Shown here: piece by piece, positions 5,605-30,461 of the stretch
Position numbering within the stretch: position 1 is the stretch's first letter
Layout: every line of letters begins with the position of its first letter
Assembly (NCBI RefSeq): GCF_000092105.1
Contig: NC_014148.1
Coordinates: 3,420,001-3,452,000 of the forward strand
Source of the DNA: Planctopirus limnophila DSM 3776
Lineage (GTDB): Bacteria; Planctomycetota; Planctomycetia; Planctomycetales; Planctomycetaceae
Reading direction: 5' to 3'
Length of the DNA stretch: 32,000 bases
The notes under the pieces: model-generated
What the model was told of the DNA's origin: nothing
What the model saw: the letters and a program-made list of their open reading frames with translations, nothing else
Database searches by the model: none
Translations under genes and position numbers: made by a program

Positions 5605-5800
5605 CGTCTTGCCTCCATTCACTGATTGGTCAACTCGGCGATATGGGATCGCGCTGCCGGAACCTGAATCAAGATTCCTGATTATCCAAAATGTACCTGT
5701 GCATGAGATCTGAAGGGATCCTTGCACCACGAGTTCCCAAAACTTCGTGATCAACAGGCAATTGAACCAGAATTACTGATGACGATCCGATCATCTCAAT

Positions 5801-10907: not shown

Positions 10908-12272
10908 TCAAAAGTACCGCCCGGAGAGATGGCAGAGCGGTTTAATGCACCGGTCTTGAAAACCGGCATACCCGCAAGGGTATCCAGGGTTCGAATCCCT
11001 GTCTCTCCGCTGAGTTTTCTTCAAAAAGCCCCTGGTTTTCAGGGGTTTTTCTTTTTTGCCGGTCTCTTCCGGTAAAACTTCAGAAGTGTCAGGTTTTGCC
11101 TCCAAATGCCCCGTTGTGACGCCTCCGCGCTGCAACTGGCGCTGCAACGGCAGACAATCGACCGCCTTCTTCTGCTCGGCCAGGTCAATGTGCGTGTAAC
11201 GTGCCGCTGTGAGGACAGGCGTTGAATGCCGGGCCAGCTTCTGGGCGGTCGTCAACGAAACGCCGCTTCGTCCCAGGTTCGTGATGAACGTGTGACGCAG
11301 TGCATGAAAATCGGCGTATCGCCCGTTGGCGTCCTTGTAGGGTATGCCCGCTTCCTGGAGATCAAACTTCAAAAGTTTTCCCGCATAGCGATACTTCGCC
11401 CAATCTCCCGGCCACAAAGGTGTTCTTGCAGGCTTGCCGGCAAGCCATACTTGAAGTTCACTCCGCAGCTCTTCCGACAAGGGCAATTCGTCTTCACGCC
11501 GACGCTTGGAGTACGCAGCCCGCACCATCACAGTGGGCGGCGAGCGATCAAGCGAAATACTTTCACGAGTCAAGGAGGCCAGTTCTGACGCCCTCAGGCC
11601 TGTAGCACTCGCGACGAGATACAGCATCCGCCGATCTTCACCCCTGAACCCCAGGTACTCCGCGCCACTGGCTGCCGTTGTCAGCAATAGCGTCAACTCC
11701 GCATCGGAAAGTGCTCGACGATCGTGCCGCCGATCGACTTGCACGTTCAACATTTCGAGACGGACCAAAGGATCTTCCCCGATCCGCTTTTCGAGGCACA
11801 GCCAGCGAGTCAGCTGCTTGATGGCTCTCAAGTAATGGTTCGAAGTTTGGGCACTAATCCCCTGCTTATCCCCCTTCTTTGCTCTCAGATCGGCCAGAAC
11901 TTTGGCAATCGATTCAGCACGAAGTTCTGCCAGACGTCGAACTTTGCAAAGTTCGAGGAGCTTCCGGCAGCGTGTCAGAACCAGGCTGACTTGCCCTTCT
12001 GAAACTTGCTTGGCCCGCAAGGACTGCTCGAACGCCAGGAGATGTTCATCCAGAGATTCGTCCTTGAATCGAGCCGCAGGACTCAACAGCCCGGCCTGAA
12101 TCATGGAAGATTCCCGTTCCAGCTTGGCTGCAAGTTGCTGAGTGGCCCCCTTATCGGTGAAGCCGGGCACAGTCTTCAGTTGGCCGTCATAGTCGCGATA
12201 CCGGACGTACCACTTGCGAACCTTAACGGTCTTGCCGTTCTTCTTGTAAGTCGGTCGATAGATCGAAGCCAC
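10908..12272 (-). CDS. int: tyrosine-type site-specific integrase
   Basis: 454 aa. The N-terminal arm-type domain begins MASIYRPTYKKNGKTVKVRKWYVRYRDYDG. The catalytic region includes LVASATGLRASELASL (Arg I), ADFHALRHTFITNL (H-x-x-R) and ARHSTPVLTAARYTHID (His/Tyr). After the catalytic Tyr the frame stays open for about 95 codons. That tail runs antisense through the terminator hairpin, the att core and the tRNA 5' half before reaching the stop at 10908-10910. Confidence 0.9.
   Translation of the reverse strand: MASIYRPTYKKNGKTVKVRKWYVRYRDYDGQLKTVPGFTDKGATQQLAAKLERESSMIQAGLLSPAARFKDESLDEHLLAFEQSLRAKQVSEGQVSLVLTRCRKLLELCKVRRLAELRAESIAKVLADLRAKKGDKQGISAQTSNHYLRAIKQLTRWLCLEKRIGEDPLVRLEMLNVQVDRRHDRRALSDAELTLLLTTAASGAEYLGFRGEDRRMLYLVASATGLRASELASLTRESISLDRSPPTVMVRAAYSKRRREDELPLSEELRSELQVWLAGKPARTPLWPGDWAKYRYAGKLLKFDLQEAGIPYKDANGRYADFHALRHTFITNLGRSGVSLTTAQKLARHSTPVLTAARYTHIDLAEQKKAVDCLPLQRQLQRGGVTTGHLEAKPDTSEVLPEETGKKEKPLKTRGFLKKTQRRDRDSNPGYPCGYAGFQDRCIKPLCHLSGRYF
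10923..11009 (+). tRNA. tRNA-Ser (anticodon UGA), class II with long variable arm
   Basis: The cloverleaf was folded by hand. Acceptor stem GGAGAGA/TCTCTCC plus discriminator G; anticodon stem CCGGT/ACCGG with loop CTTGAAA (anticodon TGA); variable arm ATACCC-GCAA-GGGTAT; T arm CAGGG-TTCGAAT-CCCTG. CCA is not encoded. TTGACA at 10869-10874 is a possible -35 element. Confidence 0.93.
10952..11021 (+). repeat. attL: left copy of the island direct repeat (3' 58 nt of tRNA-Ser plus trailer)
   Basis: 10952-11013 is identical (62/62) to 23145-23206. The match extends to 11021/23214 with one mismatch (69/70). Confidence 0.9.
11029..11057 (+). terminator. rho-independent terminator downstream of tRNA-Ser (hairpin flanked by an A-tract and a T-tract, so potentially bidirectional)
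   Basis: The stem 11029-11034 cccctg / 11040-11045 cagggg has the loop gtttt and is followed by tttttctttttt. It is preceded by aaaaa, so the minus-strand transcript would also see the hairpin followed by CUUUUU. It lies inside the C-terminal tail of the integrase ORF. Confidence 0.8.
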
Positions 12273-12275
12273 GTT

Positions 12276-12494
12276 CTATCCCTTCCGTTTTTGAAGTGGT
12301 GGGGCCATGGGGACTGGGCACCCTGCCGCAATCCATTCCTGAATATCCGAAACTCTCCAGCGTGTCGATTTACCGACGCGGACAGGTGCAGGCAGTTTCC
12401 CCGCACTCCGCATCCGCCAAAGCGTTCTCAATGAGATGCTCAGCATACTCGCGACACTCTCCGCTGTCGCCAGTATTGGGTTGTTCTGATCCAT
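12276..12494 (-). CDS. xis: AlpA/MerR-like helix-turn-helix excisionase-type DNA-binding protein
   Basis: The start is set at Met 12494 (MDQNNPILATAESVASMLSISLRTLWRMRSAGKLPAPVRVGKSTRWRVSDIQEWIAAG). This matches the typical AlpA/excisionase pattern (LS.S.RT..R....G.fP.P...G....W...dI..Wi). It ends 3 nt upstream of the integrase start. Confidence 0.8.
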   Translation of the reverse strand: MDQNNPILATAESVASMLSISLRTLWRMRSAGKLPAPVRVGKSTRWRVSDIQEWIAAGCPVPMAPPLQKRKG

Positions 12495-12563
12495 CAGAGT
12501 TTCCTTTGCAAATTCATTTGTTCCAAAAGAGTTTTTAACACCCACATTACAAGCCATAAATAC

Positions 12564-12854
12564 CTAGCTCGCTCGCCTCATTATGGTTTCCAATTCATCG
12601 AAGGAGATACCTTCTTCTTGAGTATCCAAACGGCTTAGGATGACGCTAATTTCAATAAGGCCGGTTACTGGATCGACTTTATTGTCGATCATCACTCCTC
12701 GTTGAAAAAGCTCCTGCAAGTACTCGAAAGCCTCGTTGTCCGATCTGATTCGAAGGCCTTCTTTTGCTGCGAAGAGAACAACCATCGGTTTGAAATCTTC
12801 CAAAATCATCAATAAACGTTTTCGATCTCTACGGGCTTTGCGTTCTCGACTCAT
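12564..12854 (-). CDS. hypothetical protein (96 aa), translationally coupled to the upstream rep-like gene
   Basis: The start Met at 12854 overlaps the stop of the 12851..14140 ORF in an ATGA arrangement (12851-12854 tcat on the + strand). The N-terminus is basic (MSRERKARRDRKR). No family was recognised. Confidence 0.55.
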   Translation of the reverse strand: MSRERKARRDRKRLLMILEDFKPMVVLFAAKEGLRIRSDNEAFEYLQELFQRGVMIDNKVDPVTGLIEISVILSRLDTQEEGISFDELETIMRRAS

Positions 12855-14140
12855 GATTCGGATTCCTTTCCGGAAGTAGAGGTATCGATTTCTGTGCCCC
12901 CGGAACTCCCCGGGTAACCCAGTTGAATCGATTTCACAGCGAGCTTGCTTTGAAAGTCGTGTTGATCGAAATACCAACGCACTTGATCAGACATGGAGGC
13001 CAGTGCGTCTTGTAGCGTGAGTAACCGTTCTCTTGCGGCATATCCCACCAGGCAGCCAGCGACGTGGTTCACATACCAGGTGCTGTCAGCAGAAGCGGTA
13101 TCAAGCGTTCGCTCCAGATTCATCAATGACCCGAATTGATCGGCACATGATTGCACGACCTCCCACCAGGGAAGCACTGTGCGGCGGCTCGTGTTGCAGT
13201 CATCTTGTGCCCGCAGAGAGAACCAGTCTTCGGTGAGGTACTGCCATAATCCCCCGACTTTCTCAATCAGATGATCCAGTTGATCAATGCCAAACTGTTT
13301 GAGAATCTCCCGGCGTAGCTGATACTCAATTCGCCAGACATGCGTTTCCGGCTCAACATTCCAAAGCTCGTAGAACCAGAGCTTGGTACCCCCTTTGAGA
13401 ACTTCCAGGCCCTTGTCATAGATTCTCAATTGAATCGGTGATTTCTTGGCGCCGTGATAAAACGTCTCCAGTGAATCGCCAGTCATATTGTGAGAATGCT
13501 GCACATGCTGCGGGACTCGATGACTCAGGAGAAATGGCAGACTCAGAGGGTCTTTGAGTTGAAGATCAACGGCCAGATCACACCGGCTCGGTTTGATCGA
13601 TCGCACTTTTCCTTCCAGAAGCTCAATCCAACGAACCATCAGATTGACCGCACTGGAGATTCCCATCGACCAGAGCGTTTTCGCATTGATCGAAACATAA
13701 CCATTGGGAGTGTTTCTGTAAGGTTCAGCACTGCGTCCCAGATAGAGATGAAACTCCGGCCATTGGAGATGCCAGCGATAGCTGGGTGGCTTACCACTGG
13801 GGAGGATGAGGAAATGATCGCCAAAGATCGGAACACCTTGAGTTCCTGCGGCCTGCTCCTTGGCTTGATCGAGAATCTGAGTCAGATCCGACCAGTTTGA
13901 ACTCCACTCGATGTAAAGGCCCAGGTCGAGTGTATCAACGCCGCAAATCAGAGGAACAGGAAGGTGATTCTTCTCCCCATTTGTAAAGGGGGCTAGGCGT
14001 GTTACAGACAATGCCTCGCCCCCATGCCGTTGCATGGGATTTTGTTGAGAATCGCCTATTGGGTGTTCTTCAGAAGAAAACTTCTGGGGAATATCGCACC
14101 AGGAATTGTTCTCCTTGCGCGAGAAACTCTCGTCACACAT
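12851..14140 (-). CDS. replication initiation protein, Rep_trans-like (rolling-circle/phage CRI-type initiator family)
   Basis: 429 aa carrying the spaced motif series typical of the replication initiation factor family: PSRCDLAVDL, then TFYHGAKKSPIQLRIYDKGLE, then HVWRIEYQLRRE. Confidence 0.65.
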   Translation of the reverse strand: MCDESFSRKENNSWCDIPQKFSSEEHPIGDSQQNPMQRHGGEALSVTRLAPFTNGEKNHLPVPLICGVDTLDLGLYIEWSSNWSDLTQILDQAKEQAAGTQGVPIFGDHFLILPSGKPPSYRWHLQWPEFHLYLGRSAEPYRNTPNGYVSINAKTLWSMGISSAVNLMVRWIELLEGKVRSIKPSRCDLAVDLQLKDPLSLPFLLSHRVPQHVQHSHNMTGDSLETFYHGAKKSPIQLRIYDKGLEVLKGGTKLWFYELWNVEPETHVWRIEYQLRREILKQFGIDQLDHLIEKVGGLWQYLTEDWFSLRAQDDCNTSRRTVLPWWEVVQSCADQFGSLMNLERTLDTASADSTWYVNHVAGCLVGYAARERLLTLQDALASMSDQVRWYFDQHDFQSKLAVKSIQLGYPGSSGGTEIDTSTSGKESES

Positions 14141-14774
14141 GAAATCGCTCGCCCATTGAAATGAAGAAACTGTTTACGACGATTGTCGAAACAGCTTCAG
14201 CTGCCTGCTTTACAGGCCAGAAACATGGGCGGGGGCGAGCCTATCAACAAAAATATCCGCGCTACCAAAGACTCAGCAGTAACCACAAAAAAGACCGTGC
14301 AAAACGATCCCCCACTGAGCGGTGCATTCAACGGTGCGGAAAGCTCGGCGACAAACTGTCGCTTTTAAATAATGTATCCCATGCTCTGTGCTGAACTCTC
14401 AACCCAGGAACATCCTGGAACTGAACGGCACCCATTCAACTTGAACCATGATTTCAATAGAATCATTACCAACTTGAATTCGACACCGCCGAAAAAAGGT
14501 TATCCGCAACTTTCCAGTTGTCTAGGGGAGTTTCTCAGAATTGTAATCACTACATCATTTGTATTTATAATTGCAAATATCTCTCTTCTATTGGCCTTGC
14601 AGGCCGTTCGGTCACTCCGCTCCGATCTCCGGACTCCGCTTACGCTGCGCCGGAATCTTCGCTGCGTTCCCTCACGCCTCATAAGCCAGAAAGGCCGAGC
14701 GAAACACGCCTCAGCCCAGGCTGGCACCTTTGAGGGGTGCCCGTCGCCTGATCTGAGGGTTTCCACTAGGGGCC

Positions 14775-16322
14775 GTGAGTGATGCCGGGTTTTCCAGAAC
14801 ACTCATCGATGGTATGAAGGCCAACCCCTCTGATATATTGCGGGCTCCCTTAGGAGCCACAGACCGCATGTTCGAACAAGCCTTCAAAAATATCGACGAC
14901 GTCCTGCGAAAAGAGTCCGGTTGCACGACCGAACTCGATTACACCGAGCAAACCTCCTGGCTGCTCTTCCTCAAGTATCTCGACGGGCTGGAACAGGACA
15001 AAGCCGACGAAGCCGCCCTGGAGGGGAAGAAGTACACCTTCATCCTCGACCCGCCCTATCGCTGGGAGGCGTGGGCTGCTCCCAAGGGGAAAGACGGCCT
15101 GATCGATCACAACCGGGCACAGACCGGCGACGACCTGCGCGACTTCGTCAACGAGAAGCTCTTCCCTTATCTCCACGGGTTCAAGCAGAAAGCCATCGGG
15201 CCGAACACCATCGAGTACAAAATTGGTGAAATCTTCGGCGAGATCAAAAACAAAATCTCCAGCGGCTACAACCTGCGAGAAATTATCGATCACATCGATG
15301 AACTGCGGTTCCGCTCGCAGACCGAGAAGCACGAGCTGTCGCATCTCTACGAAGCCAAGATCAAGAACATGGGCAACGCCGGGAGGAACGGCGGCGAGTA
15401 TTACACGCCCCGTCCCCTCATCCGGGCAATGATCCAAGTGGTGAAACCGAAGATCGGCGAACGGATCTACGATGGCGCGGTCGGCTCGGCGGGCTTCCTG
15501 TGCGAGGCGTTCGAGTATCTGAGAGCGAAGCGAGGTTTAACAACCAAAGAGGCCAAGACGCTGCAGGAGAAGACGTTCTACGGCAAAGAGAAAAAGTCGC
15601 TGGCCTACGTCATCGCGATCATGAACATGATCCTGCATGGCATCGAAGCGCCGAACATCGTCCACACCAATACGCTGACGGAGAACCTCGCGGATATCCA
15701 GGAGAAGGATCGTGTCGACGTGGTGCTGGCCAATCCACCATTTGGCGGCAAGGAACGAAAGGAGGTTCAGCAGAACTTCCCCATCCGCACAGGCGAGACC
15801 GCGTTCCTGTTCTTGCAGCACTTCATCAAGATTCTGAAAGCGGGGGGACGGGGCGGCGTGGTCATCAAGAACACGTTCCTCTCGAATACCGACAACGCCT
15901 CGGTGAGTTTGCGGAAGCTGCTGCTCGAGAGCTGCAACCTGTACGCCGTGCTCGATTGCCCCGGCGGCACGTTCCAGGGGGCGGGCGTGAAGACCGTCGT
16001 GCTCTTCTTTGAGAAGGGAGCACCAACGCGGAAAGTCTGGTTCTACCAGCTCGACCCAGGCCGCAACCTGGGCAAGACGAACCCGCTCAACGATGCCGAT
16101 TTGGCTGAGTTCATCGAATTGCAGGCGACCTGCGCCGATTCGCCGAAGTCGTGGAGTGTGGAGGCCACCACGATCGACCAATCGACATTCGACCTGTCGG
16201 TGAAGAACCCCCACGGCGGCGAGGAAGTGACGCATCGCAGCCCCGAAGAGATCATGGACGAGATCGCCGCCTTGGACGCCGAGAGTGCCGAAGTCCTGCA
16301 AACCATCCGGGGGCTGATATGA
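14775..16322 (+). CDS. hsdM: type I restriction-modification system, DNA methyltransferase subunit M (N6-adenine)
   Basis: Motifs present are an HsdM N-terminal block (TEQTSWLLFLKYLD), a SAM-binding motif (IYDGAVGSAGFL) and the catalytic VLANPPFGG. The ORF-track start is GTG at 14775; ATG at 14814 or 14868 are equally plausible. The stop overlaps the hsdS start (ATGA at 16319-16322). Confidence 0.92.
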   Translation: MSDAGFSRTLIDGMKANPSDILRAPLGATDRMFEQAFKNIDDVLRKESGCTTELDYTEQTSWLLFLKYLDGLEQDKADEAALEGKKYTFILDPPYRWEAWAAPKGKDGLIDHNRAQTGDDLRDFVNEKLFPYLHGFKQKAIGPNTIEYKIGEIFGEIKNKISSGYNLREIIDHIDELRFRSQTEKHELSHLYEAKIKNMGNAGRNGGEYYTPRPLIRAMIQVVKPKIGERIYDGAVGSAGFLCEAFEYLRAKRGLTTKEAKTLQEKTFYGKEKKSLAYVIAIMNMILHGIEAPNIVHTNTLTENLADIQEKDRVDVVLANPPFGGKERKEVQQNFPIRTGETAFLFLQHFIKILKAGGRGGVVIKNTFLSNTDNASVSLRKLLLESCNLYAVLDCPGGTFQGAGVKTVVLFFEKGAPTRKVWFYQLDPGRNLGKTNPLNDADLAEFIELQATCADSPKSWSVEATTIDQSTFDLSVKNPHGGEEVTHRSPEEIMDEIAALDAESAEVLQTIRGLI

Positions 16323-17560
16323 AGGCTGGATGGATATACAAGACGCTAGACGACGTTTGCGAATTCAATAATGGACTTTGGAAGGGAGAGAAGCCACCCT
16401 TCGTCACAGTTGGCGTAATAAGGAACACCAACTTCACGAAAGAAGGCACGTTAGATGATTCCGACATTGCCTATATTGAGGTTGAGGCAAAGAAATTCGA
16501 GAAACGTCGCTTGGTCTTTGGCGACCTAATCTTGGAGAAGTCGGGGGGGGGGCCGAAGCAACCAGTAGGACGTGTTGCGCTCTTCGACAAAAGGGCGGGG
16601 GATTTTTCCTTCAGCAACTTCACAGCTGCGATACGCGTGAAAGATCCGAAAACGTTGGACTTCCGCTTTCTGCACAAGTTTCTTTTCTGGACGCACTTGT
16701 CTGGTGTCACAGAAACGATGCAGAGCCATTCGACAGGTATTCGAAATCTCAATGGCGACGTTTACAAATGCATTGAGGTACCGCTTCCCCCGCTGACCGA
16801 GCAGCGGCGGATTGTGGGGATTCTTGACGAAGCGTTTGAGGGCCTCGCCACCGCCAAAGCGAACGCCGAAAAGAACCTCCAAAACGCCCGCGCCCTCTTC
16901 GAAAGCCACCTCCAGGCCGTCTTCACCCAACGCGGCGACGGGTGGGTGGAGAAAACTGTGAAGGACGTTGCCTCGCCAATCAAAGGCTCAATTCGCACTG
17001 GACCTTTCGGTAGTCAATTACTGCACAGCGAGTTCGTTGATGAAGGTATTGCTGTTCTCGGCATCGACAACGCCGTCGCCAATGAATTCCGCTGGGGAAA
17101 AAGCCGGTTCATCACGAAAGACAAGTTCGGCCAGCTTGAGCGCTACCGAGTGTATCCCGGAGATGTGCTGATAACGATCATGGGAACATGTGGCCGCTGC
17201 GCGGTTGTTCCGGACGACATTCCGACCGCGATCAATACAAAGCATATCTGCTGCATCACGCTTGACTGGAAAAAGTGCTTGCCGAGCTACCTCCACCTCT
17301 ACTTCCTACACGCACAACAGTCGCAAGCATTCTTAGCGAAACATGCCAAGGGCGCAATCATGGCTGGACTGAACATGGGCCTAATTCAAGAGCTTCCGGT
17401 ATTGCTCCCACCGACTCAGGTTCAGTCAGCAATCGTCGAAGCAGCCAACGATCTCCGCGAAGAAACCCAACGCCTCGAATCCCTCTACCAGCGCAAGCTC
17501 GCCGCGCTCGATGAATTGAAAAAGTCACTGCTGCACCGCGCCTTCAGCGGGGAACTGTAG
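16319..17560 (+). CDS. hsdS: type I restriction-modification system, specificity subunit S
   Basis: The start is set at ATG 16319 (MKAGWIYKTLDDVCEFNNG), overlapping the hsdM stop. There are two target-recognition domains separated by the conserved central helix LPPLTEQRRIVGILDEAFEGL, and a C-terminal conserved helix (QRLESLYQRKLAALDELKKSLLHRAFSGEL). The 56 codons upstream in the ORF track (16151-16318) lie inside hsdM and are not used. Confidence 0.9.
   Translation: MKAGWIYKTLDDVCEFNNGLWKGEKPPFVTVGVIRNTNFTKEGTLDDSDIAYIEVEAKKFEKRRLVFGDLILEKSGGGPKQPVGRVALFDKRAGDFSFSNFTAAIRVKDPKTLDFRFLHKFLFWTHLSGVTETMQSHSTGIRNLNGDVYKCIEVPLPPLTEQRRIVGILDEAFEGLATAKANAEKNLQNARALFESHLQAVFTQRGDGWVEKTVKDVASPIKGSIRTGPFGSQLLHSEFVDEGIAVLGIDNAVANEFRWGKSRFITKDKFGQLERYRVYPGDVLITIMGTCGRCAVVPDDIPTAINTKHICCITLDWKKCLPSYLHLYFLHAQQSQAFLAKHAKGAIMAGLNMGLIQELPVLLPPTQVQSAIVEAANDLREETQRLESLYQRKLAALDELKKSLLHRAFSGEL
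16543..16552 (+). repeat. homopolymeric G10 tract inside the hsdS coding sequence
   Basis: The sequence reads tc-gggggggggg-cc at 16541-16554 and encodes ..EKSGGGPKQ.. (codons 75-78 of HsdS). It is the longest homopolymer I noticed in the window. Confidence 0.95.
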
Positions 17561-17574
17561 GAGATGCCCATATC

Positions 17575-18987
17575 ATGATCACCACTCCCGAACAAATCGA
17601 CGCCTGGCGTGCGGCACGCTCGGAACATCAAAACCTCGAATTCAAAGAGGCCAAGAACCAATTCGATAACCGCAAGCTCTTCCGCTATTGCGTCGCTTTG
17701 GCCAACGAAGGGGGCGGGCACTTGCTGCTGGGAATCGAAGACGTTCCACCTCGCAAAGTGGTGGGAACGGCTGCATTCAACGATCCGGTGGAGATGGCCG
17801 CGAAGATATTTCAAACTTTGAACTTTCGAGTCGAAATCGAGGAAGTTGCTCATCCCGATGGCCGTGTTCTCGTGTTTCATATCCCCAGCCGGCCCTTGGG
17901 AACCGCCTATCAATACGAAGGTGCTTACCTGATGCGGGCGGGCGAAGAGCTTGTCGCGATGAGCGAAGATCGCTTGCGGCAAATCTTTTCCGAAGGTCAA
18001 CCTAATTGGCTTTCACAACCCGCAAAGACCGATGCCAGTGACGATGAGGTCATTGCGTTGCTCGACACGCAGGCTTACTTCGACCTGATGAAGTTGCCCT
18101 ATCCTACCCAACGAACGGGCGTTCTGGAAAGATTGGCGAGCGAAGGATTGATCAAAGGCGACTCGAATGGGTGGGAGATTTCGAACCTCGCTGCCATTCT
18201 TCTGGCGAAAAGACTCGATGGGTTCTCGCACGCACTGGCAAGGAAAGCGCCCCGTGTGGTGATCTACGACGGTGTGAACAAACTCAAGACAAAAGATGAC
18301 AAACCCGGAATGCGGGGCTACGCCGTAGGATTCGAGGCGTTAGTGGACTTTGTGCATTCGGCCGCACCGCAGAATCGGTTCATCGAAGAAGCCGTGCGAA
18401 AAGAAGTCAAAATGTTCCCGAAGCAAGCCCTTCGCGAACTTATTGCGAATGCACTTGTTCATCAAGACTTTCTGATGACCGGAGCATCCGTGATGATCGA
18501 GATGTACGACGATCGAGTGGAAATCTCGAATCCCGGACTTCCACCGATCCAGGTCGAGCGATTCATTGATGAGTATCGCTCCCGAAACGAACGCCTGGCC
18601 GATCTGATGCGTCGGCTGGGAATCTGCGAGGAGAAAGGCAGTGGCATCGACAAGGTGATCAGTGCGTCGGAAGTGTTTCAACTTCCCGCCCCAGATTTTC
18701 GCGCCGGAGAGTTGCGAACCACGGCTGTCCTGTTCGCCCATCAAGATTTTCCGGTCATGACAAAGGCGGATCGCATCCGAGCGTGCTATCAGCACTGTTG
18801 CTTGCAGTACGTGAGCGGGCAGCGGATGTCAAATCAGTCGCTCCGGCAGCGGTTCGGAGTGGACGATTCAAAAGTTGCAACCGTGTCGTTGGTGATCACC
18901 GCGACGAAAGACGAAGGTCTGATCAAAGCGGATGATTCTGAAAGCAGTTCGACTCGTTACGCTCGGTATCTGCCGTTCTGGGCGTAA
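17575..18987 (+). CDS. AlbA_2 (Schlafen-like) / HATPase_c_4 ATP-binding protein with C-terminal wHTH, embedded in the R-M operon
   Basis: 470 aa. The N-terminal block EHQNLEFKEAKNQFDNRKLFRYCVALANEGGGHLLLGIED is typical of the AlbA_2 putative DNA-binding domain. The central block KQALRELIANALVHQDF...IEMYDDRVEISNPGLPP...RSRNERLADLMRRLGICEEKGSGIDKV is typical of the RecG-C-terminal-like HATPase_c_4 module. GGAG lies 11 nt upstream of the ATG, and the gene starts 15 nt after the hsdS stop. Confidence 0.8.
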   Translation: MITTPEQIDAWRAARSEHQNLEFKEAKNQFDNRKLFRYCVALANEGGGHLLLGIEDVPPRKVVGTAAFNDPVEMAAKIFQTLNFRVEIEEVAHPDGRVLVFHIPSRPLGTAYQYEGAYLMRAGEELVAMSEDRLRQIFSEGQPNWLSQPAKTDASDDEVIALLDTQAYFDLMKLPYPTQRTGVLERLASEGLIKGDSNGWEISNLAAILLAKRLDGFSHALARKAPRVVIYDGVNKLKTKDDKPGMRGYAVGFEALVDFVHSAAPQNRFIEEAVRKEVKMFPKQALRELIANALVHQDFLMTGASVMIEMYDDRVEISNPGLPPIQVERFIDEYRSRNERLADLMRRLGICEEKGSGIDKVISASEVFQLPAPDFRAGELRTTAVLFAHQDFPVMTKADRIRACYQHCCLQYVSGQRMSNQSLRQRFGVDDSKVATVSLVITATKDEGLIKADDSESSSTRYARYLPFWA

Positions 18988-19082
18988 GTGCTTTAATGCA
19001 AAAGGAAATCCACAACCACCTAAGACGCAATGTATTGACATGAAAAGACTTGTGCTCTTTAACGCAATCCAGAATGCATGCT

Positions 19083-19229
19083 CTGAACGAAGCCAAAACC
19101 AGAGCCGACCGCATCAACACCACGCGCGCCGGTGCCAGTTGGGGAGTCATCGAAGGAAACCGTATGTGGCAGGGATATCCGATTGCTATGAGACTTCTCG
19201 AAGGCTTTAGCCAGTGCGGCACAGCTTGA
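19083..19229 (+). pseudogene. decayed 5' fragment of a second hsdR allele (first about 48 codons, start codon lost)
   Basis: Translated in frame, it reads (L)NEAKTRADRINTTRAGASWGVIEGNRMWQGYPIAMRLLEGFSQCGTA*. This aligns without gaps to the N-terminus of the intact HsdR at 20345 (MNEAETRAEHIDPALAAAGWGVVAGSRIRREYPIAPGRLEGFGRRGK), at about 50 percent amino-acid identity by hand count. ATG is replaced by CTG, and similarity ends at a TGA at 19227-19229. Confidence 0.7.
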
Positions 19230-19280
19230 TCAACGAATTTAGTAGACCGAGTTTTCACTGGGGCACTCCAGGAACCGCAG

Positions 19281-20339
19281 ATGGCCGACGAAACACCTCC
19301 CTCCGAGATGATTCTGTACCAGACCGAAGATGGCAGGACTCGCATCCAGTGCCGCTTCGAGAACGAAACCATTTGGCTGACGCAGGCCCTGATCGCTGAA
19401 TTGTTCCAGGTCACTCCGCAAAACGTGACACTCCATCTGAAGGCGATCTACCGGGAAGGGGAACTCGACGAGGGGGCAACTTGTAAGGATTGCTTACAAG
19501 TTCGATCCGAAGGAGGCCGCGAAGTCACTCGCAAACTTCGCCATTACAGCCTGCCTGTCATTCTGGCCGTTGGTTATCGCGTTCGCAGTCATCGCGGCAC
19601 CCAGTTTCGCCAGTGGGCGACGGCCCGCTTGAGCGAATACCTGGTCAAAGGGTTCGCGATGGACGACGAGCGGCTCAAGAATCCGCCCGGCAAAGGTCAA
19701 AAAGACTACTTCGACGAGCTGCTGGAACGCATTCGAGACATCCGCTCCAGCGAACGGCGGTTCTATCAGAAAGTCCTCGACATTTATGCGACCAGTGTCG
19801 ATTACTCGCCGAAAACGGAGACCTCGCAGGAGTTCTTCGCCACAGTGCAAAACAAAATGCACTGGGCGGCACACGGTCACACTGCCGCCGAAGTGATCCA
19901 TCGCCGAGCCGACGCCAACCAGCCACTGATGGGAATGAAATCAACCCGTCCGGGCGGTGTGATCCGCAAAGATGATGTCTCAATCGCCAAGAACTACCTC
20001 AACGAGGACGAACTGCAGGCTTTGAATCGCATCGTCAATGCCTATCTCGAATTTGCCGAGCTGCAGGCGCTCAACCGAAAACCGATGACAATGGTCGACT
20101 GGATCGTCAAACTGGATGATTTCCTGAAGTTGTCGGGACGTGAATTGCTGCAACACGCTGGAAAAATTTCCGCTGAAGACGCCCGCAACAAGGCAGAAGC
20201 CGAGTACGCGCGCTATCGACAGTTTTTAGACTCCCAGCCGCGCCGAGTGGACGACGACCTGGAGCAAGCCGCAAAAGAGATTCAGAAACTTCCGAAGCCG
20301 AAAAGGCCAAGAAAACCCAAAGACGGCAGTGAAGGTTGA
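19281..20339 (+). CDS. rhuM: RhuM-family protein (virulence protein RhuM-like), embedded in the R-M operon
   Basis: 352 aa. The N-terminal and central blocks are characteristic of the RhuM family: MILYQTEDGRTRIQCRFENETIWLTQALIAELFQVTPQNVTLHLKAIY, YSLPVILAVGYRVRSHRGTQFRQWATARLSEYLVKGF and DYFDELLERIRDIRSSERRFYQKV. Its stop lies 5 nt before the hsdR ATG. Confidence 0.85.
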   Translation: MADETPPSEMILYQTEDGRTRIQCRFENETIWLTQALIAELFQVTPQNVTLHLKAIYREGELDEGATCKDCLQVRSEGGREVTRKLRHYSLPVILAVGYRVRSHRGTQFRQWATARLSEYLVKGFAMDDERLKNPPGKGQKDYFDELLERIRDIRSSERRFYQKVLDIYATSVDYSPKTETSQEFFATVQNKMHWAAHGHTAAEVIHRRADANQPLMGMKSTRPGGVIRKDDVSIAKNYLNEDELQALNRIVNAYLEFAELQALNRKPMTMVDWIVKLDDFLKLSGRELLQHAGKISAEDARNKAEAEYARYRQFLDSQPRRVDDDLEQAAKEIQKLPKPKRPRKPKDGSEG

Positions 20340-20344
20340 ACACC

Positions 20345-22780
20345 ATGAACGAGGCGGAAACCAGAGCCGAACACATCGACCCAGCGCTCGCCGCCGCTGG
20401 CTGGGGAGTCGTTGCAGGGAGCCGTATTCGGCGGGAGTACCCCATCGCTCCAGGACGGCTTGAAGGGTTTGGCCGGCGCGGGAAATCACTTACTGCCGAT
20501 TACGTGTTGGAATACCGCAATACAAAACTCGCTATCGTCGAGGCCAAGGCCTGGGATGAAGAACTGACCGAAGGGGTCGGCCAGGCAAAGAACTATGCCG
20601 AAAAACTCGAAGTTCGCTTCACTTACTCGACCAATGGACAAGGGATCTACGGCATCGACATGCGGGAGGGAACCGAAGAGGAAGTCCCCCGATATCCGAC
20701 ACCCGATGAACTGTGGAATCTTACTTTCGCCGAACAGAACGCCTGGCGCGACCGATTCGCCGCGATTCCGTTTGAAGACCGGGGCGGCTACTTCCAGGGC
20801 CGCTACTATCAGGACATCGCCATCGAGCGGGTACTGGAAGCCATCGCCGCCGGGAAGCCGCGAATTCTGCTCACACTGGCGACCGGTACGGGCAAGACGT
20901 TCATCGCGTTTCAACTCGCCTGGAAGCTGTTCCAGAGCCGCTGGAATCTGAGCCGCGAACCGTCACGCCGTCCACGCATTCTGTTCCTCGCCGATCGAAA
21001 CATTCTTGCCAACCAGGCCTTCAATGCCTTTTCCGCTTTCCCGGAAGATGCAATGGTGCGGATCGAACCAGGCGAAATCAAAAAGAAAGGCAAAGTCCCC
21101 AAGAACGGCAGCCTGTTCTTCACGATCTTCCAGACGTTCATGAGTGGACCACCCAAAAACGGTGAGCCGTCCCCCTACTTCGGCGAATATCCGGCGGACT
21201 TTTTCGACTTCATTGTCATCGACGAATGCCATCGGGGCGGCGCAAACGACGAAAGCACCTGGCGCGGCATCCTCGACTATTTCGCTCCTGCCGTGCAGCT
21301 CGGCCTGACCGCGACGCCCAAGCGGAAAGACAACGTCGACACCTATGCATACTTCGGCGAACCCGTCTACGTCTATTCGCTGAAAGATGGCATCAACGAC
21401 GGCTTCCTGACGCCGTTCAAGGTGAAGCAGATTTCCACCACGCTGGATAACTACATCTACACTGCTGACGACGAACTGATCGAAGGAGAGATTGAGGAGG
21501 GCAAGCGGTACGAGGAGAAAGACTTCAACACGATCATCGAGATCCGCGAACGGGAAGCGTATCGTGTGAAGTTGTTTATGGAGTTAATCGACCAGCGGCA
21601 GAAGACTCTTGTCTTCTGTGCCACTCAGATTCATGCGCTGGTAGTTCGCGACCTGATCAATCAGATCAAGACGAGCAAAGAACCGAACTACTGTGTTCGT
21701 GTGACCGCAGATGATGGCAGCCTGGGGGAACAGTATCTGCGGGACTTTCAGGACAACGAAAAAAGTATTCCGACGATTCTGACGACATCGCAAAAGCTCT
21801 CGACTGGCGTCGATGCGCGAAACGTGCGAAATATTGTGCTGATGCGGCCAATCAAGTCCATCATCGAATTCAAGCAGATCGTCGGCCGCGGGACTCGCCT
21901 CTACGACGGTAAGGATTACTTTACGATCTACGATTTCGTCGAGGCTCATCACCATTTTGCCGACCCCGAATGGGACGGCGAACCAGTCGATGATGAACCA
22001 TGCGAGAAGTGTGGACAGAATCCTTGTGAATGCATAAAGCCCCCCTCTCAGCCGTGCGAAGAATGCGGGGAAAGCCCATGCGTTTGTGTTCCAAACCCGT
22101 GCTCGAATTGCGGCAAACAGCCGTGCGAATGCCCCCGGGAGCCATGTTCCCAATGCGGGAAAATGCGGTGCAAGTGCCAGCGCAAACGCATCACAAGGGT
22201 CAAACTGGCCGACGGCAAGGAACGAACGATCCAGCACATGATGGCAACGAGCTTTTGGCATCCGGATGGAACACCCATGTCGGCTCAGCAATTCATGCAA
22301 AGCCTATACGGCAAATTCCCCGACTTCTTCAGCGACGAGACCGAACTACGAACGCTGTGGAGTTCGCCGGACACACGGGCCAAACTGCTGGAAGGGCTGG
22401 CAGAAAAAGGATTCGGCTCCGACCAGATGGCTGAGATGCAACGGATCATCGACGCCGAAAAGAGCGACCTGTTTGACGTGTTGGCCCACGTTGCCTTTGC
22501 CCTGACACCGCTGACCCGCGAAGAACGCGCCGCCCGTGCAAAGCTGGAAATTAGTACTCACTTCGATGACAAGCGGCAGGCATTTCTTGCATTTGTGCTG
22601 GCGCAATACGTGAAGGAAGGCGTGGGCGAACTGGACTCGGACAAACTCGGCCCACTGCTGAAACTCAAATACAACAATGCCATCGCGGATGCGGTCATCG
22701 ACCTGGGACGCCCCGAAGAGATTGGCAAAGTGTTCAATGGATTCCAGAAATTCCTTTACCAGTCGCAAACCGTTGTTTGA
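20345..22780 (+). CDS. hsdR: type I restriction enzyme, R subunit (EcoEI-like architecture: HSDR_N nuclease, SF2 helicase, EcoEI_R_C tail) with a Cys-rich insertion
   Basis: The start is set at ATG 20345 (MNEAETRAEHIDPALAAAGW); the track uses TTG at 20336. The nuclease core is ADYVL...AIVEAK. Helicase motif I is LATGTGKTFIAF, motif II is VIDECHRG, and the run continues with LGLTATPKR and later motifs. The C-terminal block SDLFDVLAHVAFALTPLTREERA is typical of the EcoEI R C-terminal domain. A 4x CxxCGxxxCxC block lies at 21998-22180. Confidence 0.9.
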   Translation: MNEAETRAEHIDPALAAAGWGVVAGSRIRREYPIAPGRLEGFGRRGKSLTADYVLEYRNTKLAIVEAKAWDEELTEGVGQAKNYAEKLEVRFTYSTNGQGIYGIDMREGTEEEVPRYPTPDELWNLTFAEQNAWRDRFAAIPFEDRGGYFQGRYYQDIAIERVLEAIAAGKPRILLTLATGTGKTFIAFQLAWKLFQSRWNLSREPSRRPRILFLADRNILANQAFNAFSAFPEDAMVRIEPGEIKKKGKVPKNGSLFFTIFQTFMSGPPKNGEPSPYFGEYPADFFDFIVIDECHRGGANDESTWRGILDYFAPAVQLGLTATPKRKDNVDTYAYFGEPVYVYSLKDGINDGFLTPFKVKQISTTLDNYIYTADDELIEGEIEEGKRYEEKDFNTIIEIREREAYRVKLFMELIDQRQKTLVFCATQIHALVVRDLINQIKTSKEPNYCVRVTADDGSLGEQYLRDFQDNEKSIPTILTTSQKLSTGVDARNVRNIVLMRPIKSIIEFKQIVGRGTRLYDGKDYFTIYDFVEAHHHFADPEWDGEPVDDEPCEKCGQNPCECIKPPSQPCEECGESPCVCVPNPCSNCGKQPCECPREPCSQCGKMRCKCQRKRITRVKLADGKERTIQHMMATSFWHPDGTPMSAQQFMQSLYGKFPDFFSDETELRTLWSSPDTRAKLLEGLAEKGFGSDQMAEMQRIIDAEKSDLFDVLAHVAFALTPLTREERAARAKLEISTHFDDKRQAFLAFVLAQYVKEGVGELDSDKLGPLLKLKYNNAIADAVIDLGRPEEIGKVFNGFQKFLYQSQTVV

Positions 22781-27295: not shown

Positions 27296-27585
27296 GCGGA
27301 GGGTGTGACGGGGTTGGGGGTATCGACCGTTCGTGTGGTCATAGGAGGGGCTTTCGGGAATGGGGTGGGGGATAGATTGGGAGAGAAAGGGTTGAGTATG
27401 GGTTTGGCTGGATCTGGTTGGGGGAGGGAATTGTGAAGAGCGGAAGGGAGCGGGGAGAGGAAAAGAAACCGGCCGCCAGGGATGACGGCCGGGGTTGAAG
27501 GGGTGGAATTGGGTCAGGAGGGCGTTTGGGAATGGTTTGAACTGGGTTCAGGTGGAGTCAATGGGTTTCAGCGGGTCGTTTTTGA
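27296..27585 (+). other. about 290-bp G-rich, C-poor tract (strong strand asymmetry) between the Rhs/immunity cassette and gltX
   Basis: A hand count of 27361-27460 gives 54 G against 4 C. Runs of GGG to GGGGG are frequent. 27362-27391 (ggggtgggggatagattgggagagaaaggg) fits the canonical G3+N1-7 x4 quadruplex pattern. There is no credible ORF on either strand. Confidence 0.7.
27461..27492 (-). terminator. rho-independent terminator (minus strand) downstream of the immunity-like gene
   Basis: The 7-bp GC stem 27469-27475 ccggccg / 27486-27492 cggccgg has a 10-nt loop. On the minus strand the hairpin is followed by UUUCUUUU (27468-27461). Confidence 0.55.
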
Positions 27586-27608
27586 GACGCTATCAGATCA
27601 GGCAAGAC

Positions 27609-27658
27609 CTCTTGTGCCGCTGGGACACAGGTCGCCCGAAGACGAGCAACCTGTGTCA
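27609..27658 (+). repeat. 50-bp hairpin-forming repeat, copy A (4 nt downstream of the immunity-like gene stop)
   Basis: ctcttgtgccgctgggacacaggtcgcccgaagacgagcaacctgtgtca matches 30411-30460 at 45/50 positions in direct orientation. The internal 8-bp stem gacacagg/cctgtgtc encloses a 5-bp stem (gcccg/cgagc, including one G:T) with a 4-nt loop. Confidence 0.85.
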
Positions 27659-27664
27659 GCCTCC

Positions 27665-28321
27665 TTATATATTCTTGGTCATTTCCTCAACAGCATAGTT
27701 TACATCTTCGTCTGCAGTTCCATACACGTCCCTGGTTGTCTCAGCAACAAGTGTCGCAATTGCTTGAAATTGCTCTCTCTCAGAGAATACATAACGACAG
27801 TGATTTTCAATCGATGTAATCCATGATGTGCATATCATTGTTGGGTACCGCTTTCTTGATGCGATATGCAGCAGGGCAGTTGATAATGCAATTGGACGGC
27901 AGGATTTGATTTTGCACAACTCAATCATACTGGATATGCGATGCAGGCGACTCGAAGTCGGTCTCAAATAGAATGAACTTGCACATAGCGCTATAAAAAA
28001 CTCATCCGGACCATGAGATGATATGTATGCACTTGCAATGCCGTTCACCAGCGAAGCTCTCGAATTGAACGCCTCTTTAACAATATCAGCAGGGATTGGT
28101 GTTGAGAGTTCCATGCAGGCAATTATTGCACAAAACTTTAATCTCTCTGGCATTAGTCTCCATATGGCAATCAATTCTTCGCTTGTGTCAATATGATTCC
28201 TTTCACACCAATCCAAGAAAAGTATATAAACGCTTCGAGTAGTATGATTCTCTGGAGATAAAGTGGCAATTATTCGCGTTACAACACTTTCAATTGTGCG
28301 TACTCTTTTCTTCTTACTCAT
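27665..28321 (-). CDS. hypothetical protein, candidate immunity protein for the upstream Rhs C-terminal domain
   Basis: The start is set at Met 28321 (MSKKKRVRTIESV...), 31 nt after the Rhs stop. The longer ORF-track version (to 28516) would overlap the Rhs 3' end. G+C is low (24/60 in 28081-28140 by hand count). The position and orientation are classical for Rhs immunity genes. No family was recognised. Confidence 0.6.
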   Translation of the reverse strand: MSKKKRVRTIESVVTRIIATLSPENHTTRSVYILFLDWCERNHIDTSEELIAIWRLMPERLKFCAIIACMELSTPIPADIVKEAFNSRASLVNGIASAYISSHGPDEFFIALCASSFYLRPTSSRLHRISSMIELCKIKSCRPIALSTALLHIASRKRYPTMICTSWITSIENHCRYVFSEREQFQAIATLVAETTRDVYGTADEDVNYAVEEMTKNI

Positions 28322-28352
28322 AATGCTATTTCTAGGTAACAAAGGGTAGTGT

Positions 28353-30461
28353 TTATTGAGGGTGGCAGTGTGTATGCGAGCACTTGCAGTTCCATGGTTT
28401 CTCCCCTGGGGTGTGACATCCCGCGTTTCTGCATTTTTTCTCTGCAGCTGCCTCACAGCTCTCTTTGGTGTCACCTGTAGCACTGAAGATACCACATCCG
28501 GGCTTGCAGCATCCATTTGCCTTTGTCGTGCCCTTCCATTTTGGTTTTTTGCAAGTCCAAATAGTTAGTCCAGTTGCCATGCCAGTTCTATCCCACGTGC
28601 ATGTATTTAACACTTCGCCTTTCGATTCACAGCATTGTTTACCTAAATCAATCTTTATTTGAGTGCAACAATTTCCATTTATCCAGGCTAAGTAACTGCA
28701 GTATTCGTTGGAAACTTGGGGGCCCCTTCCCGAGCCAGGGCAATAGTTATGACAGGGTGTTCCAGTGCAGGGGATCTCTCGCAAGCCTGATGGGTCTGTG
28801 TGGTTTAATGGTTTACTAGATGCGTACGAATACAGAGGTGTGAAGCCTGGCTCAACAATCAATCTCACCTGTTCGTTGATAAGTCGAAATATAGGATCAC
28901 GTGATACCCAGAGGCCTAAGGTGGAAATGAGCGTTCGGTGCCGAACCATATACATAACCTGTGACTTGATTGCCTTGTAGCCACAGTAAAGAATTGTCCA
29001 GGCACGACTGGGAGAAGCGTGGACAAAGCTGTCGTCGAGGGTGGTGATTTTGCCATAAAGAGAGTAGTTGTAGTGTTCCTGGGTGTCGCCGTTCCCATTG
29101 ACAATGGCGTCGACGTTCCAGTTGGCGTCTTGAAGGGTGTAGAGGCGTTCGTCGAGGGTGGAATCTGTAGAACGGTCGCGGAGGAGGCAGTTGTCGATGT
29201 ATCTCAGACCCCAGATGTGGTGTTGGTGGGGGGCTTCTGAATCAGGGGCGGTGCCCAGGCGGTCTTCGAGGTTTTGCCAGCCGCTGTTGTAGTAGAGGTG
29301 GCGGGTTTCCTCGATGGTACCGTCGGTGTATTCTTCCTGGGTAATCTGGAACTTGCGGCCGTCGTAGGCGTAGGTGCTGACGGTTTCCAGTGTGCTGGAG
29401 ACTTCCTCTTCGAGTTTGACGAGTCGGTTCCAGGCGTCGTAGGTGGCGAGGTATTCCTTGCTGGGGTCTTTGGGCTGGGGGATGGTGGTCATGTTCCCGG
29501 CGGGGGAGTAGGCGGGTTGGGCCCAGCTTGAACCGACGCTGTTGGTGATGGTGCCGATTTCGTTGACTTCGTTGGCGGTTCTGGCCTGGACAAGGTCGTT
29601 GGTCAGATCGCCGTCGTCGTCGCGGGTGTGGGCGGTCCAGTTGCCGGTGGCGTCGAGGTTCCAGGTCTCGCCGAACGTTTGACTGGTGAGGGCCGTGTGG
29701 CCGACATTCAATGTTCCGCGAGCCATGTCCTTCAACCGATGGCTGCCGTCGTAGGTGTAGATTTCGTCGAACTCGGCACTGTAAGACTGGGCGACCGGGT
29801 TTTCCCGCCAGATGCGGTTCGAGGCGCGGTCGTAGCCGTACTTGATGCGGTCGAGATCGGTGCCCTCTTTGTGCCAGCGGTTGTCTTTGACTCGGCCAAA
29901 GCGGTCGAGGCCCGTGTATATATCGCCGGTATCGGGATCATTGCTGGAACCGACCAGCGTCCATTGGATGCCGGGTTCGGGGGAGGTGCTGGTGACGAAG
30001 GTACTACGGCCCAGGTATTCGTAATCGACCAGGTGAGTGGAATCGTCGTCGATGATCGAGACGGTGCGGCTGAGGGCATCATCCAGACTGTTGGCGGTGC
30101 CGTAGCTGTAGGTCAACGTGCGGCCGTTGGGATAGACCAGCCCTGTCTGGCGGATCGAGTTATTCGAGCCGTCGGCGTAGGTGTACTGGACTTTCGGTGT
30201 CGTCAACACGTTCACCGCTCCATCATGGGACTGGTACTCCGTGATCAGTTGGCCAAAATCATCGTACACCATTTGTACCTGATTGATGCAGTTACTCATT
30301 GCGACGGAATCGAAAGCCACTGCCGGCGAGCGATCCCCGGCAGTGGGTGGAAAGAAACACTTTGCTGAAATATCAAAGAGCAAAAAGATCATGGTCGAGG
30401 GAGGCGCAAACTCTTGTGCCGCTGGCACACAGGTCGCTCTAAGACGAGCAATCTGTGCCAC
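28353..30461 (-). CDS. RHS repeat-associated core protein, N-terminally short form, with a novel Cys-rich C-terminal domain
   Basis: YD/RHS repeats are present throughout (VYDDFGQLITEYQ, YTYADGSN, LVYPNGRTLTYSYG, YEYLGR, YGYDRASNRI, YTYDGSHRL, YAYDGRKF). The RHS core end reads YCGYKA.....MYMVRHRTLISTLGLWVSRDPI...PLYSYASSKPLNHTDPSGL. A 142-aa tail with 19 Cys follows. The start is uncertain: the first 17 codons lie inside repeat copy B, and Met 30392 or Met 30299 are alternatives. Confidence 0.85.
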   Translation of the reverse strand: MAQIARLRATCVPAAQEFAPPSTMIFLLFDISAKCFFPPTAGDRSPAVAFDSVAMSNCINQVQMVYDDFGQLITEYQSHDGAVNVLTTPKVQYTYADGSNNSIRQTGLVYPNGRTLTYSYGTANSLDDALSRTVSIIDDDSTHLVDYEYLGRSTFVTSTSPEPGIQWTLVGSSNDPDTGDIYTGLDRFGRVKDNRWHKEGTDLDRIKYGYDRASNRIWRENPVAQSYSAEFDEIYTYDGSHRLKDMARGTLNVGHTALTSQTFGETWNLDATGNWTAHTRDDDGDLTNDLVQARTANEVNEIGTITNSVGSSWAQPAYSPAGNMTTIPQPKDPSKEYLATYDAWNRLVKLEEEVSSTLETVSTYAYDGRKFQITQEEYTDGTIEETRHLYYNSGWQNLEDRLGTAPDSEAPHQHHIWGLRYIDNCLLRDRSTDSTLDERLYTLQDANWNVDAIVNGNGDTQEHYNYSLYGKITTLDDSFVHASPSRAWTILYCGYKAIKSQVMYMVRHRTLISTLGLWVSRDPIFRLINEQVRLIVEPGFTPLYSYASSKPLNHTDPSGLREIPCTGTPCHNYCPGSGRGPQVSNEYCSYLAWINGNCCTQIKIDLGKQCCESKGEVLNTCTWDRTGMATGLTIWTCKKPKWKGTTKANGCCKPGCGIFSATGDTKESCEAAAEKKCRNAGCHTPGEKPWNCKCSHTHCHPQ
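30411..30460 (+). repeat. 50-bp hairpin-forming repeat, copy B (31 nt downstream of the alpha/beta hydrolase stop, overlapping the nominal Rhs ORF start)
   Basis: ctcttgtgccgctggcacacaggtcgctctaagacgagcaatctgtgcca is 45/50 identical to 27609-27658. It forms a 6-bp version of the same stem. Confidence 0.85.

Follow-up and report, generated by a model that had tools for sequence, protein, structure and literature searches.

The window analysed here, a stretch of 32,000 nucleotides from Planctopirus limnophila DSM 3776 (contig NC_014148.1, positions 3,420,001 to 3,452,000), carries on its minus strand a truncated Rhs gene (28353..30461; Plim_2663), followed by a gene for a protein of 218 amino acids (aa; 27665..28321). 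We propose that the two genes form an orphan Rhs C-terminal cassette of the rhs-CT plus rhsI type, in which the last part of the Rhs tail, the C-module, is a toxin and the downstream gene encodes its HEAT-repeat immunity partner, and that the copy in the window is most likely a silent reservoir. We give this reading a probability of roughly 0.6. It draws on the truncation of the Rhs gene, on the exchange of core end, tail and partner gene as one block relative to a related genome, and on the recurrence of the C-module together with a partner gene at other loci. The type of system, an Rhs orphan cassette with an immunity gene, is ordinary; its cargo and partner are new and lineage-restricted, and probably constitute a new toxin/immunity family inside this well-known kind of system.

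Plim_2663 is a 5'-truncated Rhs fragment

The Rhs open reading frame (ORF) is intact over 702 codons, and its product is 100% identical to Plim_2663 (P0003) of P. limnophila DSM 3776. Its assignment rests on homology to planctomycete Rhs proteins, because the curated models score below their cut-offs. The core has 1609 homologues among planctomycete Rhs-family proteins, at 45–73% identity, many of them with PF05593 or PF25023; PF05593 matches the window ORF itself with E 0.045 and 14.6 bits, under its cut-off of 22. The segment SRDPIF...HTDPSGL aligns end to end with TIGR03696 (positions 1–76) and reaches 27.6 bits against a cut-off of 32.5, the shortfall being caused by a 17-aa insert. The ORF thereby contains an RHS-associated core that ends in DPxGL. 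The motif, here DPSGL, lies at 28782–28796 (minus strand), exactly where the original prediction had placed the boundary between core and cargo.

A complete shell with an N-terminal plug and a trafficking or secretion domain was not found in the ORF. It aligns solely to residues 1295–1756 of the 1801-aa Rhs protein P0145 (27% identity). YD-repeat core homology is recognisable from about position 30300, and the 54 codons before that point run through a junction repeat described below. Judged from these alignments, Plim_2663 is a 5'-truncated orphan fragment that covers only the last third of an Rhs shell. Many homologues of 600–700 aa on long contigs begin inside the same core stretch of about 60 residues.

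The closest relative of the fragment is found in a Planctomyces sp. metagenome-assembled genome (L007, the locus of P0004). There, a full-length Rhs of at least 1495 aa and an LRR-like ORF come first, and the fragment, 85% identical at the nucleotide level, follows 1.25 kb farther downstream, which is the classical arrangement of a main rhs gene plus an orphan rhs-CT/rhsI cassette (PMC3150448). The truncated layout and the open 54-codon leader are both retained in L007 at this level of identity. Given the P0145 alignment and the L007 comparison, the gene is a truncated fragment and not a deployable Rhs toxin. The window shows the layout of orphan rhs-CT/rhsI modules, which are well established (PMC3150448, PMC7043789): a 5'-truncated fragment with a conserved core, a variable C-terminal region and a downstream ORF. 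The full-length Rhs protein in L007 (121–5792) ends in a membrane helix and a Cys-rich tail of its own, and the 424-aa LRR-like ORF that follows it may be another kind of repeat-protein immunity.

Core end, tail and partner gene are exchanged as one block

Nucleotide homology between the window and L007 extends over the conserved backbone of the fragment (30461–29103 against L007 5860–7209, 85% identity; 29103..30461 on the minus strand) and then vanishes. It resumes at 27662, three bases past the stop codon of the partner gene (27662–27298 against L007 8580–8943, 76% identity). The non-homologous segment between these points (27663..29102, minus strand) comprises the end of the core (~105 codons), the whole tail and the partner gene, and it coincides with a region of low G+C. 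The G+C content is 0.41 in the partner gene, 0.48 in the tail, 0.48 in the core end (28782–29100) and 0.59 in the core body, with 0.53 for the whole window. At the same place L007 has a different tail and a membrane-protein ORF. Because the homology stops at 29103 and resumes at 27662, and because both breaks match the drop in G+C, the core end, tail and partner gene are, on this alignment, a single block exchanged relative to the L007 genome. A horizontally swapped cassette had been predicted from the lower G+C of tail, core end and partner, which holds on recounting (the hand counts of 24/60 and 34/60 are exact), and the comparison with L007 bears the prediction out.

The cassette is bracketed by a direct repeat of 59 nt. 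The upstream copy (30402–30460) lies at the 5' edge of the Rhs fragment ORF, just past the stop codon of an alpha/beta-hydrolase gene, and the downstream copy (27600–27658) lies 7 nt past the stop codon of the partner gene. The copies are 85% identical, and no such pair is expected by chance. The repeat folds as a 15-bp hairpin (arms of the downstream copy at 27624–27638 and 27643–27657), with calculated energies of -29 kcal/mol (z -2.8) for the upstream copy and -34.9 kcal/mol (z -3.3) for the downstream copy. In L007 it likewise occurs at cassette borders, in three copies (5861–5919, ~8580–8640 and ~9558–9620). No match was found in Rfam, and an integron attC site was rejected, as no GTTRRRY/RYYYAAC core sites were seen by eye. 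The repeat may be a terminator-like or REP-like element, or a recombination site.

Farther downstream of the cassette, a consensus scan picked up a terminator-like feature, a GC-rich hairpin followed by a T-run (27469..27492, minus strand). The stretch directly 3' of the cassette (27298–27560) is G-rich, with a GC skew of up to +0.62 and no evident gene, and is conserved in L007 at 70–76% identity (8580–8943 and again 9558–9764).

The Rhs tail consists of two modules

The tail after DPSGL (28356–28781, minus strand), recomputed from the sequence, has 142 residues and is identical to the one originally read. It contains 19 Cys, including three CC pairs and one CKC, against 3 Cys in the 506-aa core. 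If Cys were as frequent as in the core, at least 19 of them in 142 residues would have a probability of 4e-20; a frequency of 1.5% still gives no more than 7e-13. A survey of the 120 best Rhs homologues (P0003–P0122) yielded 66 tails that are 40 aa or longer. Their median Cys content is 5.2%, against 0.6% in the cores; eight tails exceed 10%, and the window tail is the highest at 13.4%. The Cys-richness that had been taken as distinctive of this tail is therefore a class property of planctomycete Rhs tails, of which this one is the most extreme case. In several tails of this Rhs clade the Cys form CC and CxC runs, or they cluster behind a membrane helix.

An exhaustive HMMER search with the tail over 1.84 billion protein representatives returned 33 hits, which cover either residues ~7–101 or residues ~76–141. 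Since the two parts match separate sets of homologues, the tail is, by this search, made up of two modules with separate distributions, and not the one domain for which it had been taken. We refer to residues 1–75 (28557..28781, minus strand; conserved part ~5–80) as the N-module and to residues 76–142 (28356..28556, minus strand), the probable effector, as the C-module.

Homologues of the N-module are P0014, P0123, P0128, P0145 and P0152, and Cys at positions 28, 38, 39, 51, 61 and 77 are invariant among them. An AlphaFold2 (AF2) model predicts a helix (41–53) and two strands (57–64 and 72–78) at pLDDT 55–89. In P0014 and P0145 the N-module precedes another C-terminal module; because it is joined to different end modules in this way, it behaves as a Cys-rich adaptor of the disulfide type. 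These two proteins, which share the N-module only, were excluded from the AF2 alignment, as MAFFT had misplaced them under the C-module. The Rhs fragment encoding P0014 (locus L002) is situated between two near-identical Y1_Tnp (PF01797) transposase genes (1832–2362 and 5289–5963), and the flanking transposase copies suggest that Rhs cassettes like this one can be mobilised.

The C-module is an undescribed family of Planctomycetota

The C-module is a basic domain of ~62 aa (net charge +6.6, pI 9) with the family consensus KKKxWKCTxKPRGxCPPxC..FxGxGxT..AKxAA..AC.AAGCHTPGG.P.NC.CGH..C. The near-invariant residues C92, C96, C117, C122, C132, C134 and H136 are all kept in the window copy. A further Cys, C139, covaries with C84 or C109: it is present in 22/22 members that have either residue and absent from the 5/5 that lack both, which is typical of a disulfide with a relocated partner residue. 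The AF2 model, built on a 28-sequence alignment, has a pLDDT of ~97 over residues 80–142 and a predicted order beta-beta-alpha-beta (strand 82–89, strand 98–103, helix 106–119, strand 133–141).

The module is always found at an extreme C-terminus, either at the end of an Rhs protein or as a stand-alone protein of ~70 aa. A survey of other scaffolds, as proposed with the original prediction, places it on other Rhs ends, where a linker that varies (the N-module, or a hydrophobic or proline-rich stretch) separates it from DPxGL, and in stand-alone genes. About 28 representatives were recovered from the 1.84 billion proteins, with 10 further loci from genomes (GTDB) and 33 from metagenomes (JGI). 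All but one of the ~80 homologues in total come from Planctomycetota or unassigned metagenomes, the sole named source outside the phylum being one 'Alcaligenaceae' bin. No relative was found in IMG/VR, and a viral origin was rejected on this ground.

The tail, the C-module family and the stand-alone proteins have no match in Pfam, NCBIfam or PADLOC. Profile searches of PDB sequences with the C-module gave nothing significant, and Foldseek gave no hit below E 0.5 in PDB or BFVD; a weak Foldseek hit to the APP copper-binding domain (probability at most 0.25) was not accepted. The unrecognised type predicted for the tail is thus upheld, since profile and structure searches place it in no described family. 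HNH/EndoVII, BECR RNases, deaminases, ADP-ribosyltransferases and all Pfam Ntox/Tox families were rejected, with no hit at E<=1. The beta-beta-alpha-metal arrangement of HNH/EndoVII toxins, with a catalytic His at the end of beta1 and a metal ligand in the helix, is also missing, as beta1, beta2 and the helix all lack a His, Asp or Asn that is conserved in the family. On the strength of these searches, the C-module is an undescribed family seen almost only in Planctomycetota.

The sole similarity found is a stretch of 20 columns resembling the beta3-alpha2 motif of the double-stranded RNA-binding domain (dsRBD). In PDB it reaches the dsRBDs of ADAR2 at a sub-threshold E of 0.12–2.2. DSRM_2 matches one of 30 C-module members (E 0.039), and no member reaches a Pfam dsrm threshold. 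With hhalign the probability is 68% over the 20 columns, measured against a small, hand-made dsRBD reference alignment. Membership of the dsRBD family was rejected, as no profile match passes a threshold and the order of elements is beta-beta-alpha-beta instead of alpha-beta-beta-beta-alpha. The motif is a hint of nucleic-acid binding. We speculate that the C-module targets RNA, given the basic KKKxWK tract, the dsRBD-like motif and one invariant His, and, equally speculatively, that its core Cys form disulfides or zinc sites.

The downstream gene encodes a probable, divergent HEAT-repeat protein

The partner gene is intact over 218 codons and starts 31 nt past the Rhs stop codon, as originally predicted. 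Its product has no Pfam hit. By BLASTP it is linked (E 2e-7; 26% identity over 145 aa) to a 258-aa protein of L003, whose gene lies downstream of an Rhs gene with a C-module. The two align end to end apart from a 40-aa deletion in the partner; the best-scoring HEAT repeats of the homologues fall in the deleted stretch. The downstream proteins L003d and L015d pass the cut-off of Pfam HEAT_2 (46.7 and 59.5 bits against 27.7), and a hidden Markov model (HMM) built from three HEAT-type proteins matches the partner ORF alone among 98 window ORFs (E 4.7e-6). An AF2 model, run on three close sequences, is all-alpha, with 12 helices and zero strands, which agrees at low confidence (mean pLDDT 57.5) with the helical protein foreseen in the original prediction. 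From these links, the partner is probably a divergent, shortened member of the HEAT-repeat family, where previously no family had been recognised. HEAT and ankyrin repeat proteins are recognised immunity classes of planctomycete polymorphic toxins (PMC3482391).

A recognisable partner gene stands directly downstream in 47 of the 50 C-module ORFs recovered; the remaining three lie near a contig end or gave no HMM hit. The downstream gene is of the HEAT family in the window and in L003, L005, L015, L018, L044 and L047, encodes an ankyrin-like protein in L006 and an 87-aa protein in L004 and L008, and belongs to a conserved, uncharacterised family, 'SFRF', at ~31 distinct stand-alone loci. A neighbour-joining tree puts the modules into separate clades according to partner: 31 are linked to SFRF, and nine, nearly all Rhs-borne, to HEAT, ankyrin (ANK) or 87-aa proteins. 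The type of partner therefore follows the lineage of the module, as expected for cognate binding pairs. The pairing of tail and partner that had been predicted is borne out.

The stand-alone loci (L009–L014, L016, L017, L019–L050) are two-gene units in which a C-module of ~70 aa is followed by an SFRF protein of 120–207 aa, often with overlapping genes (an example is L017, 1889–2065 and 2084–2470). The SFRF proteins have no match in Pfam, NCBIfam or PADLOC. By its layout, such a unit may be a toxin-antitoxin-like pair with the toxin first. Two loci that appeared to combine an Rhs-borne module with an SFRF gene (L028 and L030) were rejected as artefacts of long open frames in high-GC DNA.

The partner of the window also has close paralogues, Plim_0728 (P0002) at 89% and P0001 at 94% aa identity. 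For P0002 (Plim_0728) and for L001 172–837, a nucleotide identity of 96% is confined to the ORF, with no Rhs tail upstream.

Site of action and alternative explanations

No signal peptide or membrane segment was detected in the partner, its HEAT homologues, the SFRF family or the stand-alone modules. The lack of export signals favours neutralisation in the cytoplasm, and the partner probably acts there. The periplasmic or extracellular action that had been suggested for the tail is accordingly not favoured.

The C-module could nevertheless be a cationic mini-protein knotted by disulfides which, like a defensin or bacteriocin, has its site of action outside the cytoplasm (envelope, periplasm or extracellular space), with the partner protecting the producer. 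Its charge and pI, the Cys content of the tail and the CxxxC...CxC pattern would fit such a protein, as would the disulfide-typical covariation of C139 with C84 and C109; Cys-rich tails throughout the clade would likewise fit survival in an oxidising environment. We nonetheless consider this explanation quite unlikely. Immunity to envelope toxins normally needs export, for which neither the partners nor the stand-alone modules carry signals. The model does not show a cysteine-stabilised alpha-beta arrangement either: a CxC is present in the last strand, but the CxxxC (C-P-P-x-C) falls in the beta1-beta2 loop, outside the predicted helix, and Foldseek returned no defensin-like hit. On these grounds a cysteine-stabilised alpha-beta defensin was rejected.

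An equally improbable alternative is that the pair is not a toxin system at all, and that the C-module is a small zinc- or disulfide-stabilised protein with a nucleic-acid-binding or regulatory role, working together with its partner, for which fusion to Rhs is secondary. Most of the distinct loci (about 31 of 40) consist of a stand-alone pair of genes and lack any delivery domain, the one similarity found is to an RNA-binding motif and not to a catalytic one, and neither gene matches models of toxins, defence systems or toxin-antitoxin systems. Against this, at least nine independent Rhs/YD proteins carry the module behind DPxGL and differing linkers at their extreme C-terminus, which is the defining place of encapsulated toxic cargo. 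The partner families are moreover swapped (HEAT, ANK, 87-aa, SFRF) while the module is kept, which is typical of immunity turnover, and passages of PMC3482391 describe stand-alone toxin cassettes as a known feature of polymorphic toxin systems.

Least likely, in our view, is a decaying relic of an old recombination or insertion, with a tail that has no present role and a partner that maybe survives as an orphan immunity gene: the 5' truncation, the lack of an adjacent full-length rhs gene or secretion genes, the substitutions N89 and S135 at nearly invariant positions and the failure to find a sigma-70-like promoter upstream of the fragment (by a consensus scan, which is weak evidence for a planctomycete) would agree with decay, but both ORFs are intact, all six core Cys and H136 are retained, the truncated layout with its open leader is kept in L007, and orphan cassettes are typically silent yet functional upon recombination (PMC3150448).

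Proposed role of the cassette

We hypothesize that the orphan cassette works as follows. The C-module would be the toxin, and the downstream HEAT-repeat protein its cognate immunity protein, which would neutralise it by direct binding in the cytoplasm. As it stands, the window copy cannot be delivered, since it has neither the N-terminal two thirds of the shell nor a domain for export or trafficking. The ~1.4 kb of conserved core could be used for homologous recombination with an rhs gene of full length, and the window copy would then most likely be a silent reservoir cassette, whose partner gene would protect against kin that deploy the same toxin. The pair could possibly also be expressed internally and act in the manner of a toxin-antitoxin pair, as has been shown for Salmonella orphans (PMC7043789).

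We also considered a more far-reaching proposal, which we regard as unlikely. In it, the C-module would represent a new class of miniature toxins, restricted to Planctomycetota, that attack RNA and have a strand-helix core derived from the dsRBD and locked by Cys (through zinc or disulfides). It would be common to the abundant stand-alone pairs, toxin-antitoxin-like with the toxin first and SFRF as the antidote, and to Rhs cargo with HEAT or ankyrin antidotes. The general Cys-richness of Rhs cargo in planctomycetes would then reflect a lineage-specific delivery through an oxidising compartment.

Several observations weigh against the silent toxin/immunity cassette that we favour. The C-module has no known toxin fold or catalytic motif, and its likeness to ADAR2 dsRBDs and the hhalign result are of the limited kind described above. 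The window copy has N89 in place of an R that is kept in at least 90% of the family, and S135 in place of a G kept in most members, so that it may be inactive. The covariation of C139 with C84 and C109, being disulfide-like, sits awkwardly with a purely cytoplasmic life. The link between the partner and the HEAT family is modest (18 bits, 26% identity), and the AF2 model of the partner is poor. Its paralogues without a tail would fit orphan immunity genes, and equally an independent function. Finally, the window contains no full-length rhs gene beside the cassette, but an alpha/beta-hydrolase gene upstream instead.

Significance and other genes in the window

The polymorphic toxin systems of Proteobacteria, Firmicutes and Bacteroidetes are well mapped; to our knowledge those of Planctomycetota have hardly been studied. 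The analysis defines in this phylum a lineage-restricted cargo domain with a confidently predicted fold and no relatives in current domain and structure libraries, along with two partner families for the C-module, one of them entirely uncharacterised. It also documents clearly the exchange of a block at an orphan cassette whose junction repeat is conserved. Should the C-module prove toxic, it would rank with the smallest cargo domains of Rhs proteins and offer a tractable way to study the delivery of such toxins, and resistance to them, in planctomycetes, whose envelopes are unusual. Otherwise, the conserved stand-alone pair would remain an unexplained two-gene unit that is almost exclusive to Planctomycetota.

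Elsewhere in the window, positions 10908–22780 hold a probable integrated defence island with a tRNA-Ser gene (10923–11010), a tyrosine integrase and, as a type I restriction-modification system, HsdM, HsdS and HsdR. Two other genes break up this system between HsdS and HsdR, one of the Schlafen/AlbA_2-HATPase_c_4 type (17575–18987) and one of the RhuM family (19281–20339). A homologue of ecotin-family serine-protease inhibitors (PF03974, E 4e-42) is encoded at 5113–5754 on the minus strand, adjoining a gene for an HlyD-like membrane-fusion protein.

Comparison with known systems

The layout of a basic, stand-alone C-module of ~70 aa with an invariant His, directly upstream of a conserved partner gene that it often overlaps, is like that of small toxin-first toxin-antitoxin pairs such as HicA/HicB. 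The resemblance is one of layout only, as the C-module is Cys-rich and has no sequence or profile match to HicA or any toxin-antitoxin family. A strand-to-helix junction with the motif F-x-G-x-G-x-[ST]-[KR]-x-x-A-K-x-A-A is common to the C-module and the dsRBD, as is a basic tract nearby. Unlike the dsRBD, the C-module has neither helix alpha1 nor the first strand in its predicted topology, and it adds six invariant Cys.

The partner resembles Imm-HEAT and Imm-ank (Zhang et al. 2012, PMC3482391) in being a predicted all-helical repeat protein without an export signal, encoded in a planctomycete directly downstream of a toxin, here a putative one. Those immunity proteins are linked to Tox-REase-7 and Tox-AHH nucleases (PMC3482391), whereas the module found here is an unrelated domain of 62 aa. 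Unlike Imm-HEAT, the window partner is too divergent and too short to match Pfam HEAT models.

Compared with the orphan modules of enterobacteria, the window cassette stands alone, between the hydrolase gene and gltX, with no main rhs gene adjoining; it is bracketed by the 59-nt hairpin repeat, and its host is a planctomycete with no secretion-system genes found near the cassette in the window. Enterobacterial orphans typically keep far less core than the ~1.4 kb of the window cassette. In its organisation, the cassette is like the orphan rhs-CT/rhsI modules of Dickeya dadantii and Salmonella Typhimurium (PMC3150448, PMC7043789), with a 5'-truncated core, a polymorphic C-terminal region and a small downstream ORF. 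The likeness extends to the exchange of core end, toxin and immunity gene as one block, and to the full-length rhs gene that lies upstream of the corresponding fragment in L007.

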